From NCBI GenBank assembly GCA_039802605.1, contig JBDRWW010000019.1, forward strand, positions 1 to 10,895: a DNA stretch of 10,895 nt, in the 5' to 3' direction. Below, in pieces: positions 1 to 10,895 of the stretch. The number at the start of each line of letters is the position of its first letter. The first letter of the stretch is position 1. The position numbers are program-made. The stretch comes from a candidate division WOR-3 bacterium (GTDB lineage Bacteria > Hydrothermota > Hydrothermia > LBFQ01).

Positions 1-3000
1 CCCCTACCGCTTGCATTCTACTCTTGTTTAAATAGTTTTTTAAGCCGGATAGTTGGTATGGGTATGCGGGGTGGGTTGTTTTTGGGGTGTGGGTTTTCGG
101 GTGTGTAAAGGATAATCCAGCCATCGGCTTCAAGTTTTCGGAGAATACTGGATATGTGCGTTGATAATCCCGAAAGTTTTCCGATATTTCTGGTATTTAT
201 TCGCGCTTCGGGAGGAACCTCTTCGTTGTATAGTATGAGCTCCATAAGTATTTTAAAGCCTTCGTGTTTTTGGATTGCTTCGGCCAGTGTTATTTTTCCT
301 GCCAGAAACTTACTTATTATTCCTTTCATTTCTTACCCCTTTTTTTAAAACGGTATATCCTTGGGTGGTTCTTGGTTTTCTTCGCCTTCTTCATCGTCCC
401 AGTCCCAAAAGTCAAAATCATCATCGTCAATAAAATCATCAAATCCATCACATTCTGGGTCCCAACAGTCGGGCATACCACAGTATGGACATATATCGCC
501 ATCATCTTCAATATCCGGGTCTGGGTCGTCTCTGTATATGTATGCCAGCATTTTATCGGCTATTATGATGGGGACAATCTCATTTAATCTTTGTCTGACC
601 TCCTCACTTACCCCTAAGCCCTTGCCTTCATCAAGGGCTTTACGCAAGTTATTCATATACACGGCGCTAAGCACCTTATAAAGTGTTTCCACTTTCATGG
701 TTTACCTCCTTTCTTTTTAATCTTCATCCTTATCCAAGTAAGTGTTCCAATATATAGTCTCTGGATTGCCTGATATACCCGGCCGACCCAGTTTAACATA
801 CCGGGTATTATAAGGGTGTTTTGTCGGAGACAGTGGAAAAATTTTTTTGACCCCCATTCCACCGCTTCGGCCGGGTATTACTGGATAATGCTGGGAAAAC
901 CCCTAAAAAGCCCGCTTTTGCCCATCAGTATTAAGGTTTTTGGGGTATTGTCATAATGGCTATTATGACAACACTGTTATTAAAAAGGAGATTATAAAAA
1001 CCATTACCAAAAGGAGTAAAATAAGGGTTTCCGATTGTGCCTTTCCCAAATTCAACCTATTAACCAAAGCGTTTAATTTGGAAATCAAATCGTCGTAATC
1101 ATTACTTCTAAAATCTACGAATTCAACTTTCCCATTAGCCTTAACACTTGTTTTCAAAACATCCGGAATAATAACAAACATCTTTTTAACCCTCTCTTTC
1201 AAAAAATTATACCTTTTAAGGGTTTTTTCATCAATTTTAACCTTCGGGTCAAAAATCAACATTATCCCGTATTCGGCTTTTTCTAATTCGCTTAAAACCC
1301 TTTTTTCACTTATCCTGTATGTGGGTGCAACATATACATTGTCATAATCCAAACCCGTCTTTATAGCCACTTTCATTGCCAATTTATCATCTTTCGGATA
1401 TAATACCACTATCATTATGACAACTGGGGCGGGAGGACTCGAACCTCCACTTCTGGGGTCAAAGCCCAGCGTCCTGCCTGTTAGACGACGCCCCAGTTAA
1501 AACTTTCTTTATGTCTTCTTCCAATGGCTGTATATATCTCATCGTGGTTTTTGGATTTGAATGGCCAGCCACTATAACGGCCACCGTGGGGTTTTCTTTA
1601 CCTAAAAGGGTAAGCCTTGATGCGCGTAAATGGTGGGGAGATACTCCGAAAAGTTTCTTTACCTTTTTATATATCCTTTGTCGGCTTACTTTGGGGATTT
1701 CTGAAATGCCTTCCAGAAAATCTAATTTGGGGAATACTTGCTTTTTTCTTCCCTTGCGACGCTCTATTACCACCTTGTCGCCTTCTATTCGCACATATCC
1801 CACTTCTGAAACCCGCAAGGCGTAGTAATATATCAACCGTAGTATTAACTGCCATTTTTGAGGTTGTGCTTTTATCTTTTCTTCAAACTCCTCAGGGCTA
1901 ATTATTTTATACTGCCGTGTGTTTTCGGGTGTTTTTATCTTAGGTAATTCATACCGAAAGCCGGCAAACTTTAATAACTCTCTTAATGCCGTTAGTTTTC
2001 TGGAACGAGTTGCTGGTTTATATTTTGCCAAGAAAAGTATATACCTTTTAATTACATCTTCGTTTAACTCTTCACCATGCAAGTCTTTCAAGTCCGTTAT
2101 GTATGCACGAATAGTTTCCTTTGTTAGATTGCGGAGTTTTAACCATCTTCCAAACTCGTATATATCCACCTTCATAGTACTGACAGGTATTTGACATTAT
2201 CATAAAAAATTTTCGGATTATACTCCACCGCTTTTATAACCAGGTCTATTATGTAAGCAACTGACTTGCCATTCGCCTTAGCGAGTTTGCGAAGTGCTTT
2301 ATAACTTTCATTCAAATATACCTTTTTAGGAATAGCGTCTTTTTTGTCTATGTGTTGAAGTATTTGTTTGATTTCCACTCTGATTTTTTCATTTTTTAAT
2401 GCTTGTAGTAATACAACCAATGCTTCATCGTATGAACAGTCGTATTTAGCGGCTATTAACCTAATTATCTCTACCTGATAGCCCTTTAAATATCCTTTCA
2501 TTTTCTAACCTTGAAAATGTTAAACTTGAACGGTTCATTGGTGGGTAGTTTGATAGCGGTACCATATATATCTGAAAGGTATCTCTCTTCGTCGTATATA
2601 TTTGGCAGGTAGCCGACAACAAAATAATCAGCATTTGCAAGGACATGGCGGGGGATTTTCCGAAAGGTTTGGGAAATGTATATAACAGTTATGGAATGGT
2701 TTCTGAAGGTCAGGAGAACTTTGTCCCAGTTCAGATTTGAGCGACTTGAAATTATCGCGGGAGCGTCATCCAAAACAAGAATATATCCCCGTTTCCATAA
2801 CAACATGCTGGGGGAAAATTCCTTATCAAACAAAAAAGTTGTTATCCTCACCCTCCCACCCTTGTATGCTTTCCAGTCATTTATGTTAGTTATTTCCCGA
2901 TATTCCCATACCGGGGATATAGTACAAACAACTACATTTCGGGCATTCCCCACCAACTTTTTAGCATATGTTGTTTTTCCAGACCTCGTGGCACCAATAA

Positions 3001-9000: not shown

Positions 9001-10895
9001 GGTCAAAGGTTTCCCTTTCCAAAGCTTCCCTTGCTTTTTGTATTGCCTGCAAAACGCTATATTCCCTATTCTCCTTCTCCATGGTTTACCTCCTTATGCC
9101 TTTTTAGGCTCTGTTTTAAATCCCAACATGACCGCGACCACTGACAAAACAAGGAATATAAACACTATATCAGATATGAGTTGGGGTAGATGCTTTCCTA
9201 AAAAGGCCATCCCCAAACCAACTACGATGGCCCCAACCAACGCTATGCCGAAATGTATGTACCGCAACTCAAATTTGTCCTTCATGGTGCGGGTATTTTG
9301 GGGTTGTTTTATTCCATTATTTACCCAGTTTACCCAGTTTTGCCCGTTTTTCCTATTTTCCAGTTTTGCCTATTTTTCCAGTTTTTCCAAAACTTGGGCT
9401 ACAAACTTCTCACTTATGATGTTTAGCATTTCCGTATAGCACTCCAATCTCGTGCGATTGTTTGGGTTTGGGTCTTTTTCAATCCTTCGAATCAGGTCTA
9501 ACAAAACATCCGATAAACTTTTTTGTTCCCTTAAACATTTGTATAACAACCGCACAAATATGTCTGTGAATGCTAAAATTTTCCCCTTTCGCCATTTTCG
9601 TGATACATATTTCGCAAGCGGTGAAAATATTTTCTTTTCTGTTCCTCTCCCAAATGAACTTATGTATATGTTATACCCAAGTACTAAAATTTCGCCTCTT
9701 ACATTTGTTATTTTCCATTCTCCTCGTTTTCCTTTCCCCGACGATTTCGTATTCCCGCCCAGAATCATATACGATATGAAACTATCCTCATTATGAAAGC
9801 GAGAAATATCCCAATACAACGCTTTTACGCAGTATGCGTATGCTATGTTTGAGTTAAAAAAATCCCCTAATATCCTCCTTTCGGTTTCTGTTAGTCTGTC
9901 AAGTTCTTCTTCCATTTGTTTCTGGATTTGTTTAATCTCTTTGATTATTACCTTTAAGGGTTGTATTAGGTGTGATATACCCAAATTGTCATATTCTCCC
10001 TTCTCTACTTTCTTTATTAACGCTTCCGAAGTTATCGGCACCTGGTGTGGGTAATAAATGGGTAGTATTTGTCGGAGGGTGTTTATAAATGATGTGCGAG
10101 CCTTGATTAATTTTTTGTATTGTGTATATAGCAAACGGGCTTTATGCATATCCGGGTTGAATTTGTGTATTTTTGCGTTATCCTGTCGGCCATACAAGTG
10201 AAGGTAATAAGCGTCAAAATAATCGTCTTTTGTTTTTCGGGTGTGTATGTAGAAGCGTGCAAACTCCCTTCCGTGTACGGTATATACTTCCTTGGCACCC
10301 AGCATAAGGAAAAGAATGCCATACCTGACGGAATAAGTCCCGGTGTTTTCTATTACCACAGTTTTACCTTTTACTATTTGGCCAAGTTGGTGGAGGTGGT
10401 TATCATGGTCGTATCTTTTCGGGGGTTCAAACTTTTGAACGGGTATTTTCTTTTCTTCTCCGGTTTCGGTGATGATTTTGGCGGTTTGGGGAACTTCTAC
10501 TTTTACCCCTTTCTCTATCCATACTTTAAACCCCTCTTCGGGGTCATAAAACACCAATATGCCGTTGCCTATATCACAGCCTATTACCTTTTGCATGGTT
10601 CTACCTCCTTTTTGTTTTACCCCTACCCCAGTAGGCGGAAATAGTCTCTTCTCCCTTTCGGGAAATATATATTTCTCCCTACTGGGGTTTTTTAAATAGC
10701 GGTAGGGGAGGTCGGAATAATGTTCAACTCCCCACTTATGTGGGCGGAATTATAGCCTCCTCCCCCGTCCCCTACCGCTTGCATTCTACTCTTGTTTAAA
10801 TAGTTTTTTAAGCCGGATAGTTGGTATGGGTATGCGGGGTGGGTTGTTTTTGGGGTGTGGGTTTTCGGGTGTGTAAAGGATAATCCAGCCATCGG

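Follow-up and report, generated by a model that had tools for sequence, protein, structure and literature searches.

Among described systems, the element analysed here lies closest to the Pseudoalteromonas phage PM2 (Corticoviridae) with its relatives among small tailless prophages, to the temperate tailless phages of thermophilic Thermus (the IN93/P23-77 type, with Tsatsa and IN93; family Matsushitaviridae), and to the Fuselloviridae (SSV type). SSV integrases are split on integration. Two reports describe small tailless prophages of less than 16 kb in Vibrio (PMC11630473, PMC12715192), and a third presents the IS110 family as bridge-RNA-guided recombinases (PMC11208160).

The window, a 10,895-nucleotide stretch analysed at its full length, corresponds to one element, C19. 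On balance, C19 is probably the complete circular genome of a temperate, tailless virus, likely with a membrane, that infects a WOR-3 bacterium of hot springs; it is one of a group of such elements in the host phylum about which little is known. An earlier note had proposed a new temperate tailless virus. That proposal holds at its core, namely a circular, apparently integrative and CRISPR-targeted element of the host lineage that is probably a temperate tailless virus, and it gains from the packaging-type family of the ATPase and from a lysozyme-like gene; a capsid was not recognised, and the VP2-like gene is no marker of kinship. The features of the window are as follows.

1–127, no strand: assembly overlap, same as 10769–10895
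18–698, minus: two ORFs without Pfam, PHROGs or NCBIfam family, 103 aa (18–329) and 117 aa (345–698; acidic, cysteine cluster)
801–818, minus: 18-nt exact copy of a host promoter-like motif (TATAAT on the minus strand)
962–1424, minus: 452-nt host-derived insert with a 150-aa tail-anchored ORF (963–1415), from chromosomal nucleotide matches
1423–1496, minus: complete tRNA-Gln(UUG), 63.5 bits
1459–2175, minus: 238-aa tyrosine integrase (phrog_1, 6.1e-18; XerA-like NF040815, 9.8e-15)
2172–2501, minus: 109-aa ORF with a weak, non-significant Arc-like hint (phrog_3180, 0.0063)
2498–3058, minus: 186-aa P-loop ATPase (phrog_2666, 8.1e-10, residues 4–169)
3027–3647, minus: 206-aa protein with one membrane segment, overlapping the ATPase gene start
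Ending at 3152: second inferred protospacer, from a contig join in run X4
3880–3935, no strand: array B, 9-nt tandem repeats as in array A (repeat family D2)
4010–4144, minus: 44-aa coiled-coil ORF after a strong AAGGAGGT ribosome-binding site, homologous to G002 chromosomal genes
4458–4679, minus: 73-aa basic protein of the fusellovirus VP2 family (PF25632, 9.1e-8; phrog_15706, 1.4e-10)
4683–5099, minus: 138-aa protein, N-terminal membrane segment, C-terminus ...GKVRF
5190–5809, minus: family-less ORFs of 107 aa (5190–5513) and 98 aa (5513–5809)
5811–6362, minus: 183-aa protein, N-terminal membrane anchor and lysozyme-like (glucosaminidase/SLT-like) domain
6359–6709, minus: 116-aa protein, C-terminal membrane segment
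6681–6881, minus: 66-aa YvrJ-family, holin-like protein (PF12841, 8e-12, 45 bits, cut-off 29.5; phrog_4898 'holin', 4.8e-9)
6859–7299, minus: 146-aa M78/IrrE-like metallopeptidase with HELGH (PF06114, 1.4e-6, 28.5 bits, cut-off 22)
7296–7841, minus: 181-aa protein, C-terminal membrane anchor, hypervariable between populations
7766–8200, minus: 144-aa protein, C-terminal membrane anchor, family-less (Pfam, PHROGs, NCBIfam)
8225–9082, minus: 285-aa protein with N-terminal helices, an 8-strand beta-sandwich (about 81–243), a variable Pro/Lys tail and an acidic end
8519–8555 (start approximate), plus: inferred protospacer ending at 8555, from a contig join in run X3
9094–9285, minus: 63-aa protein, two membrane segments
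9320–9390, no strand: array A, 9-nt tandem repeats (AAAACTGG-type on the minus strand; repeat family D2)
9370–10596, minus: 408-aa divergent IS110-family DEDD recombinase-like protein, the largest gene (PF01548, 1.2e-9; phrog_2199, 6.8e-14)
10597–10790, minus: structured leader upstream of the recombinase gene, two long stem-loops (inverted repeats I5, I11)

Because positions 1–127 and 10769–10895 are identical (100% over 127 nt), the unit is a 10,768-bp circle; the end sequence has no further copy in the genome except a 24-nt chance match. Contigs of run X1 (1–1353, 1327–10655 and 10626–10798) overlap around the circle junction, X1 being the likely source run and hence not independent of the C19 assembly. 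The closed circle and, save for that chance match, the uniqueness of its ends thus hold as the earlier note had it, and so does its claim that C19 words persist in runs of two other studies (0.72 and 0.65 retained in P2, 0.50 in P3). All 24 ORFs lie on a single strand, and 10 of them encode a membrane segment.

Sequence comparison places the ATPase in the packaging-ATPase family of membrane-containing tailless phages. Its best and only significant family, phrog_2666, is also matched by PM2 P9 (2.6e-50), by Tsatsa gp13 (5.5e-37) and by the ATPase homologs P0005 and P0006 (5.4e-10 and 1.2e-10). Its hhalign alignments span 105 columns (93.9%) and 132 columns (91.2%); its scores of 51.4 and 46.6 are not higher than the 48.3 of the best of 99 host Walker-A ORFs, and aligned length alone distinguishes it, host P-loop controls scoring similarly yet over just 21–50 columns. 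The homolog in the related element of genome G017 matches Pox_A32 (1.5e-4) and DUF87 (0.0021). The small P-loop ATPase of the earlier note is therefore not only borne out but strengthened, and the enzyme would pack DNA into a particle.

The VP2-like protein passes its family cut-off (PF25632, 32.8 bits against 27) and shares 55.7% identity over 61 aa with Tsatsa gp10, itself a match to phrog_15706 (1.2e-21). Relatives are encoded in 102 IMG/VR stretches, and none of the 80 such loci fetched holds any other C19 protein; by this distribution the gene is promiscuous and no marker of kinship. The match to Thermus phages that had been reported is real. The basic protein would condense DNA for packaging.

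The 285-aa protein is a candidate virion protein, either capsid or trimeric spike, on the strength of structural modelling. A search of 1.84 billion proteins yielded 3 representatives, and its model reaches pLDDT 60–89 in core blocks. The predicted trimer scored 0.69 against 0.00 for the best of 3 controls, with partner pLDDT of at least 79 and at least 67% of contacts agreeing between runs. The mark is one that 20 of 30 solved homo-pairs reach, against 1 of 23 single chains; here it was applied to three copies and with a custom alignment. The predicted interface includes the invariant R145, Q146 and D213–N215. No PDB entry matched the model at Foldseek E<=0.001, hhalign against Tsatsa MCP1, Tsatsa MCP2 and PM2 P2 gave probabilities of 0.06–0.44%, and no relatives were found in IMG/VR or JGI metagenome contigs. 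Of the jelly-roll candidate put forward earlier, the modelled beta-sandwich and the scarcity of homologs stand, now with a predicted trimer; as a capsid it is a candidate. A particle could consist of the 285-aa trimer together with the element's numerous small membrane proteins.

For release, the YvrJ-like holin would act together with the lysozyme-like protein, which has a membrane anchor. The 183-aa protein has no match of its own in Pfam, PHROG or NCBIfam; in the Atlas, PF01832 clusters make up 25 of 30 named feature matches (0.90–0.92), structural similarity (TM 0.51–0.68) serves as a lead, not a test, and the gene at the equivalent position in G112 matches PF01464 SLT (1.2e-4). It is thus a candidate endolysin, judged partly from models, within the holin block. 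A homolog of the neighbouring M78 gene is present in the G017 element (1.9e-7), and tblastn shows another in G112 (0.005). Both the holin-like and the M78-like genes had been named earlier, and each lies above its Pfam cut-off. Of the remaining small proteins, the 98-aa one has a single homolog cluster (94% identical), and the 138-aa one is weakly matched (E 0.01) in the G017 element, where a 182-aa ORF also occupies the position of the 206-aa gene; in run X6 the 181-aa gene has 409 different letters in place of 7321–7719.

The largest gene, which the earlier note does not mention, matches PF01548 at 38.6 bits (cut-off 29) and NF033542 at 2.9e-20. Searches found no paralog in the host (tblastn, other 22 contigs) and no homolog beyond itself among 5.8 billion clusters; the G017 element holds a DEDD homolog (PF01548, 5.5e-9). 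We infer that this gene belongs to the resident core of C19 and is not an insertion sequence in transit. Its leader folds at -82.2 kcal/mol, against -53.2 +/- 4.6 for shuffles (z -6.25), with stem-loop arms at 10625–10643/10670–10688 and 10698–10716/10761–10779; it matches no Rfam family, and the region upstream of the G017 homolog is not so structured (z -0.28). Array A, a candidate operator or iteron, lies upstream of the 63-aa/285-aa gene block and array B upstream of the 76-aa/206-aa/ATPase/integrase block; both may be sites for an element-encoded regulator, and the G017 element has an analogous pair of 10-nt repeat arrays.

Nucleotide comparison shows that C19 also holds host-type sequence, namely a promoter motif and two gene segments 85–89% identical to chromosomes of the genus. 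The 18-nt motif occurs in host CRISPR leaders and upstream of tRNA genes, and the same type stands upstream of tRNA-Gln at the end of contig C2. The 150-aa gene beside the tRNA is, judged by its matches (86% to G000:C2:40537-40977, 89% to G002:C67), a recent host-derived insert; its chromosomal copy adjoins gyrA, an 11-nt direct repeat, ATTATGACAAC, flanks it at 962–972 and 1414–1424, and in X6 position 961 is joined to 1414, leaving the insert absent. This host origin had escaped the earlier note. The 44-aa ORF is 87% identical to G002:C76:50-165 and 85% to G002:C1:20349-20436 (G002 is of the same genus), with differences mostly synonymous in this frame; the overlapping 78-aa ORF (3960–4196) is probably spurious.

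Such host-derived cargo and the IS110-type recombinase would also suit a non-viral integrative plasmid or element, one with circular replication and integration at tRNA-Gln whose membrane proteins and ATPase work in maintenance or transfer. Plasmids too are CRISPR targets, the folds matched by the 285-aa model are not specific, IMG/VR holds no relatives of that protein or of the ATPase, and no capsid, terminase-nuclease, portal or replication gene was recognised (Pfam, PHROGs, NCBIfam). However, plasmid replication, partition and conjugation families were likewise absent at E<=0.05 (Pfam, PHROGs for 24 ORFs, NCBIfam for 17), with no Rep, Par, relaxase or type IV secretion family in these collections; moreover, the sole significant family of the ATPase is that of the PM2 and Tsatsa packaging enzymes, a holin-like and lysozyme-like block is present, and size, topology and the share of small membrane proteins resemble PM2. 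We thus regard the plasmid as unlikely, though the most serious competitor to the virus. The viral circle would replicate once excised.

The signs that C19 integrates are indirect. As the earlier note stated, the 3' end of the integrase gene runs over the only tRNA-Gln(UUG) among the 46 tRNAs of the assembly, by 38 nt; the protein falls under the cut-off of PF00589 (3.1e-5, 24.3 bits against 27.1). In an alignment of same-genus tRNAs, positions 1422–1451, 30 nt of the tRNA 3' part, are identical to the chromosomal tRNA-Gln, and host-type contigs in X3, X4 and X6 have only this segment in common with C19; it is the likely att core. The host tRNA-Gln locus coincides with an assembly gap from the C2 end to the C18 start. 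One WOR-3 contig of 55,426 nt encodes an ATPase 98% identical to that of C19, a contig of equal length is the recorded source of the last 58 aa of the 138-aa protein, and the C19 integrase recurs unchanged on a contig of 28,264 nt. Distant relatives sit between housekeeping genes (G017:C27 and the 91.7-kb contig G112:C47) and are, from this gene context, chromosomally integrated in two further genomes of the phylum. The integrase would recombine the 30-nt core with the host tRNA-Gln, and both junctions would hold a whole tRNA; since its ORF ends 8 nt outside the core, it would remain unsplit.

The G017 relative, with an integrase shortened to 168 aa and a rearranged gene order that suggest decay in that lineage, raises the question whether C19 derives from such a virus in defective or satellite form and depends on a helper for capsid or replication. 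The missing capsid and replication genes fit this, as does an X6 variant lacking 675 nt inside the recombinase gene. Yet C19 keeps at least 90% identity across three studies, with a word depth of about 135 in X6, its ORFs are intact and tightly packed, and no candidate helper was seen; we consider a satellite improbable.

Targeting of C19-related populations by the CRISPR system of the host lineage is supported by contig sequence, in line with the earlier note, whose two joins were found again. Six host-genome contigs carry the repeat at an end, and that genome has a Cas10-like gene and no Cas3 above cut-off. An X3 contig (1291 nt) runs through C19:7303–8555 into the full 29 nt of the repeat, and an X4 contig (1857 nt) through C19:1327–3152 into 28 nt; TAAAG and TAGAG follow the respective protospacers. 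This evidence amounts to two assembly joins in a single study, and C19 matches none of the 30 complete spacers of this genome. From leader-based orientation, both crRNAs would share mRNA sense. That the joins are instead assembly chimeras, or repeat copies in variant elements, is most improbable: each is a single k-mer contig, not raw reads, and both come from one study, the 55 spacers assembled for G000 and G002 include no match and the repeat was not found in JGI metagenome contigs, but two sites share one orientation and an exact repeat from its first base, TA[A/G]AG follows both, X3 and X4 also contain the G002-type chromosomal tRNA-Gln flank and G002 has the same repeat, and passage from element to repeat at k=31 requires reads containing both.

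Set against known systems, the C19 recombinase resembles IS110 in its DEDD domain above the Pfam cut-off, in a match covering 29–342 of the 343 positions of the NCBIfam model and in a strongly structured non-coding leader. It departs from IS110 in its 72.7 bits against an NCBIfam cut-off of 140 and in being single-copy, with no host paralog and no defined IS ends; it has diverged together with the element across springs and is kept in the distant G017 relative, where the leader is not. The Fuselloviridae share with C19 circular double-stranded DNA, a VP2-family DNA-binding protein (PF25632) and an integrase gene over a tRNA-derived att region. VP1 and VP3 are unmatched, the C19 signals are bacterial (sigma-70-type promoter motif, Shine-Dalgarno sites) and, unlike in SSV, the integrase ORF would stay unsplit on integration.

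The Thermus tailless phages are like C19 in their thermophilic hosts and temperate nature, and Tsatsa has an integrase, a homologous gp10/VP2-like protein and an ATPase of the same PHROG. At 10.8 kb, C19 is about half their 19.6–20.8 kb, shares 2 of 24 ORFs at significance, and lacks both matches to Tsatsa MCP1 and MCP2 and the ATPase-MCP1-MCP2 block. Compared with PM2, C19 has no match to the double jelly-roll capsid P2 (hhalign 0.38%), one beta-sandwich in its 285-aa model where P2 has two, and no PM2-like rolling-circle Rep; its genes all lie on one strand, with a tyrosine integrase, a tRNA and an IS110-type gene. The two nevertheless share a circular double-stranded DNA of closely similar size (10,079 bp in PM2, 10,768 bp in C19). 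Their packaging ATPases fall into one PHROG, and each encodes numerous small membrane proteins as well as a lytic enzyme bearing a membrane segment.

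C19, a 10,895-nt contig of the WOR-3 host genome under study (G000), is probably a temperate, tailless virus of the membrane type. Its two ends (1–127 and 10769–10895) are identical and its unit is therefore a 10,768-bp circle; contigs 1–1353, 1327–10655, and 10626–10798 of metagenome run X1, which is the likely source and hence not independent, overlap round the junction. The plausible genes are closely packed and all on the minus strand, hydrophobic segments occur in 10 of the 24 ORFs, and GC content ranges over 37–46%, compared with 38–42% in contigs of the host genome. Consensus scans of C19 for promoters and terminators scored no higher than shuffled sequence (24 vs. 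29.4 and 7 vs. 12.1, respectively). Apart from the following six genes, no ORF of C19 has a family match at E ≤ 0.05:

1459–2175, minus: tyrosine integrase, 238 aa (phrog_1, 6.1e-18; XerA-like NF040815, 9.8e-15)
2498–3058, minus: P-loop ATPase, 186 aa (phrog_2666, 8.1e-10)
4458–4679, minus: VP2-like basic protein, 73 aa (PF25632, 9.1e-8, over its cut-off; phrog_15706)
6681–6881, minus: YvrJ or holin-like protein, 66 aa (YvrJ, 8e-12; "holin" phrog_4898, 4.8e-9)
6859–7299, minus: M78-like peptidase, 146 aa (Peptidase_M78, 1.4e-6)
9370–10596, minus: IS110-type DEDD recombinase, 408 aa (PF01548, 1.2e-9; phrog_2199, 6.8e-14; NF033542, 2.9e-20)

The ATPase shares its family with known viruses. P9 of the corticovirus PM2 and gp13 of the Thermus phage Tsatsa are packaging ATPases of membrane-containing tailless phages, and both match phrog_2666 (2.6e-50 and 5.5e-37), as do two homologs of the C19 protein (~1e-10). 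Profile alignment of the C19 ATPase family by hhalign covered 105 columns with Tsatsa gp13 (93.9%) and 132 columns with PM2 P9 (91.2%). With one script, the best of 99 host Walker A ORFs reached 48.3 and the two phage ATPases scored 51.3 and 46.4; the control alignments covered only 21–50 columns. Since host P-loop proteins attain similar scores, the family assignment leans chiefly on the PHROG E-values. An AlphaFold2 model built from six sequences had a mean pLDDT of 42, too low for a fold search. The ATPase profile found no PDB sequence below E 0.16 (the top three rows, of HerA/DUF87 type, are not significant), tblastn against 50,697 phage records gave one nonsignificant match, and scans of IMG/VR with the alignment and of GTDB with the protein yielded no relative.

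The candidate virion component is a 285-aa protein (8225–9082, minus) with three representatives among 1.84 billion proteins (94, 52, and 40% identity) and no relative in alignment scans of IMG/VR and JGI metagenome contigs. Its model, from four sequences (mean pLDDT 61.6, core blocks 60–89), comprises N-terminal helices, an eight-strand sandwich at about residues 81–243, and a disordered tail. Foldseek returned no PDB row at E ≤ 0.001 and a list mixing lectins, comovirus and enterovirus capsids, TNF-like proteins, and an SH1 chain; BFVD gave two unnamed rows at E ≤ 0.001 plus many C1q/TNF-like rows, and the profile matched nothing among PDB sequences. The modeled fold is jelly-roll-like; a role in the virion is a candidate one. 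Residues 76–250 passed a trimer test (scores 0.55, 0.72, and 0.69, median 0.69; best of three controls 0.00), with partner pLDDT of at least 79 and at least 67% of contacts shared between runs. When the tool was calibrated, 20 of 30 solved homo-pairs attained the mark, as did 1 of 23 single chains; these counts are only rough for this case because three copies and a custom alignment were used. The predicted interface takes in the family-invariant R145, Q146, and D213–N215, and such a trimer would fit a spike head or a capsomer.

A lysis function may be sought in a 183-aa protein with an N-terminal membrane anchor and no HMM match. In Atlas, glucosaminidase clusters account for 25 of its 30 named feature matches (0.90–0.92), and its model reaches TM-scores of 0.51–0.68 against phage proteins and glucosaminidases; both are leads only. 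Three segments differ in other springs, where unrelated or strongly diverged sequence takes their place: 7321–7719 (most of a 181-aa anchored protein), 8258–8337 (the tail of the 285-aa protein), and 5927–5997 (part of the 183-aa protein). Host-range or immune pressure could underlie these swaps. In X1 and in X3 and X4, two runs of one other study, a contig follows the M78 gene as far as 7233 (~7180–7233) before its sequence departs, and depth is raised in that bin; a further element or gene whose M78 N-terminus is similar is present in these springs.

The largest gene of C19, which the earlier note did not mention, encodes the 408-aa recombinase. Its PF01548 match exceeds the cut-off (38.6 vs. 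29 bits), its NF033542 match falls below (72.7 vs. 140 bits), and PF02371 was not reported at E ≤ 0.05. IS110 insertion sequences are mobile units with further copies and defined ends; the C19 gene, in contrast, has no paralog in the other 22 host contigs, and no close homolog was found. It is present in X3, X4, and a further run, X6, at 4–7% divergence and is conserved in an element of another genome of the phylum, G017. No variant has cleanly lost it: X6 also carries one with an internal 675-nt deletion. The recombinase appears to be a resident gene of C19, not a passing insertion. The leader ahead of it (10597–10790) forms a pair of long stem-loops (z −6.25). Rfam has no family for this leader, and that of the G017 homolog lacks structure; a bridge-RNA role is retained as a bare possibility. 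A single-copy IS110-type recombinase conserved within such an element represents an unexplained use of this enzyme family.

A profile search of 272 genomes of the phylum found matches at E ≤ 0.001 in eight, G000 included, of which two, G017 and G112, were examined further. On the 18.9-kb contig G017:C27, the element lies between an alpha/beta hydrolase gene and apparent purine and riboflavin genes, as read from translations of the flanks. It encodes an ATPase (30% identity to that of C19, 8e-19; phrog_2666, 1.3e-6; Pox_A32, 1.5e-4), an integrase (PF00589, 1.3e-21), an M78 peptidase (1.9e-7), a DEDD IS110-type protein (PF01548, 5.5e-9), and a weak homolog of the 138-aa protein of C19. Its two divergent intergenic regions each hold an array of 10-nt tandem repeats (7014–7075 and 9500–9564 in the coordinates of that element, L135); the counterparts in C19 are 9-nt units at 3885–3928 and 9325–9385, and in both elements the arrays are placed upstream of gene blocks. 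The units differ in sequence between the two elements and could be regulator sites or iterons. Contig G112:C47 carries a phrog_2666 ATPase (1.9e-9), an M78-like gene, and, positioned like the 183-aa gene, one with an SLT domain (1.2e-4, at the cut-off). Apart from the VP2-like gene itself, the 80 IMG/VR loci that carry one have no protein in common with C19.

A capsid protein is recognizable in none of these three elements, and C19 might accordingly be described as an integrative plasmid-like element; set beside its phrog_2666 ATPase and its holin-like and lysozyme-like genes, this description is rather unlikely. Taking C19 as a virus, we would venture, tentatively, that it and the elements on G017:C27 and G112:C47 form a new family of temperate, membrane-containing tailless viruses restricted to the WOR-3 phylum. 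The virion would be made of a trimeric single beta-sandwich protein without detectable kin among known capsids, an IS110-type DEDD recombinase, possibly guided by its leader RNA, would have been recruited as a core viral gene (as a second integration route, or for genome replication or resolution), and a functional tRNA-Gln(UUG) would be among the genes of the virus. Packaging ATPases of the family found in PM2 and in Thermus tailless phages also occur in elements whose capsid is unrecognizable, and small tailless viruses may in consequence be undercounted.

The tRNA-Gln(UUG) of C19 (63.5 bits) is the sole such tRNA among the assembly's 46. It matches the tRNA-Gln of three same-genus genomes exactly in the acceptor stem, D stem, and T arm and departs from them in the anticodon stem by compensated changes. 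Thirty nucleotides (1422–1451) are identical to the tRNA-Gln of all three (G002, G003, and G004), and in contigs of X3, X4, and X6 with the genus-type anticodon arm and a chromosomal flank, only this stretch is common to C19; in X3 and X4 that flank is G002 sequence. These 30 nt are the likely att core, and the integrase ORF ends at 1459, outside it. Synteny with G002:C12 places the host tRNA-Gln locus in an assembly gap: host contig C2 ends 3 nt into the tRNA, and C18 begins ~139 nt downstream. An NCBI WOR-3 MAG has, on a contig of 55,426 nt, an ATPase 98% identical to that of C19. A contig of equal length is the recorded source of the C-terminal 58 aa of the 138-aa protein, a fragment that would be expected where an integrase-side junction is cut by a contig end. 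An identical integrase is encoded on a contig of 28,264 nt. Together with the gap at the host locus, these near-identical genes may point, indirectly, to an integrated form. A GTDB scan for the C19-type anticodon arm reached a single MAG, from a different phylum; the match covered just 40 nt, no C19 proteins were nearby, and it was dropped. A multicopy host repeat of ~750 nt (2127–2850 of L025, the G002:C12 locus), probably an insertion sequence or similar, occupies at least nine places in G000, several at contig ends, explaining several contig breaks in that assembly; it sits just upstream of the tRNA-Gln in G002 and at the C2 end.

Host sequence has also entered the element. Positions 975–1415 are 86% identical to G000:C2 beside gyrA (40537–40980) and 89% to G002:C67 (664–1107). 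X6 joins 961 to 1414 and so lacks a 452-nt piece bounded by an 11-nt direct repeat (962–1424), which marks this piece as a recent host-derived insert; it holds, beside the tRNA, the gene of a 150-aa tail-anchored protein. Homologs of this gene occur in 11 of 41 related genomes, G000 counted, and two genes from its chromosomal copy lies a 1134-aa ORF (G000:C2 41486–44890; 8486–11890 of L001) that, judged by its translation alone, looks like a fused restriction–modification enzyme. By contig depth, which gives rough ratios, the element's variant of the gene stands at 9.7 and a 31-difference variant, probably the chromosomal copy, at 19.4 in X3; a 34-difference variant stands at 37.7 in X4, against ~9.5 for the element. 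Positions 4045–4160, encoding a 44-aa ORF, are 85–87% identical to two G002 loci. The loci of this coiled-coil ORF (4010–4144) are chromosomal (C76:50–226 and C1:20349–20436); 19 nt separate one of them from the terminal repeat of a CRISPR array, on the side away from the leader.

The CRISPR repeat of the host lineage is present in G000 and one other species representative, G002, and in none of the JGI metagenome contigs (0 copies). As the earlier note had it, contigs of X3 and X4 join C19 to this repeat, at 8555 and 3152, respectively, and both inferred protospacers are followed by TA[A/G]AG (n = 2). The evidence for a CRISPR-targeted invader is these two contig joins; 0 of 55 assembled spacers match C19. 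A conserved leader is common to the CRISPR arrays of G000 and bears a sigma-70-type promoter close to consensus. The −10 region of this promoter, CCCTTATAATACCCGG, also precedes tRNA genes and occurs once in C19, where 801–818 is an exact copy of the promoter-like leader motif (G000 loci C3:7–24, C15:227–244, C18:14747–14764, C20:48–65). We read the leader as the conserved flank with TTGACA-N16-TATAAT pointing into the array; given that orientation, crRNAs would be of mRNA sense. G000 has a Cas10-like ORF on C5 and no Cas3 core above the cut-off, and the leader-side flanks of three arrays contain no cas genes. Parts of C19 occur in 15 of the 17 listed runs, from nine studies; six hold at least half of its words, two of these being a possible source.

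Viruses of WOR-3 are almost unknown: one hot-spring study linked no virus to the group (PMC7490370), and for the phylum a 2026 preprint (10.64898/2026.06.24.734251) predicts a single viral genome plus a single circular extrachromosomal one; its supplements could list C19. The C19 genome is complete and is tied to its host in several independent ways, namely, by the att core, the promoter motif, the captured host genes, and the CRISPR joins; a defective or satellite form is improbable. Its completeness and host links provide a concrete virus–host system in an uncultured thermophile.

Among known systems, C19 resembles the Thermus phages of the IN93/P23-77 type in its gp10-like basic protein and packaging ATPase. 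Those phages, however, carry two single jelly-roll capsid genes beside the ATPase; in C19 its neighbors encode a 206-aa membrane protein and a 109-aa ORF, and in this sequence-level comparison such capsid genes are absent, hhalign of the 285-aa protein against Tsatsa MCP1 and MCP2 giving 0.06% and 0.44%. With Corticoviridae and Vinavirales-like viruses it shares an FtsK/HerA-type (A32-like) packaging ATPase, by its phrog_2666 match and with hhalign scores not above host P-loop controls, and a circular dsDNA genome of ~10 kb (10,768 bp vs. 10,079 bp in PM2). Like tRNA-targeting tyrosine-integrase elements, finally, C19 has a tyrosine recombinase, with a PF00589 match below the cut-off (24.3 vs. 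27.1 bits), and an att core that matches a segment of a host tRNA gene exactly.
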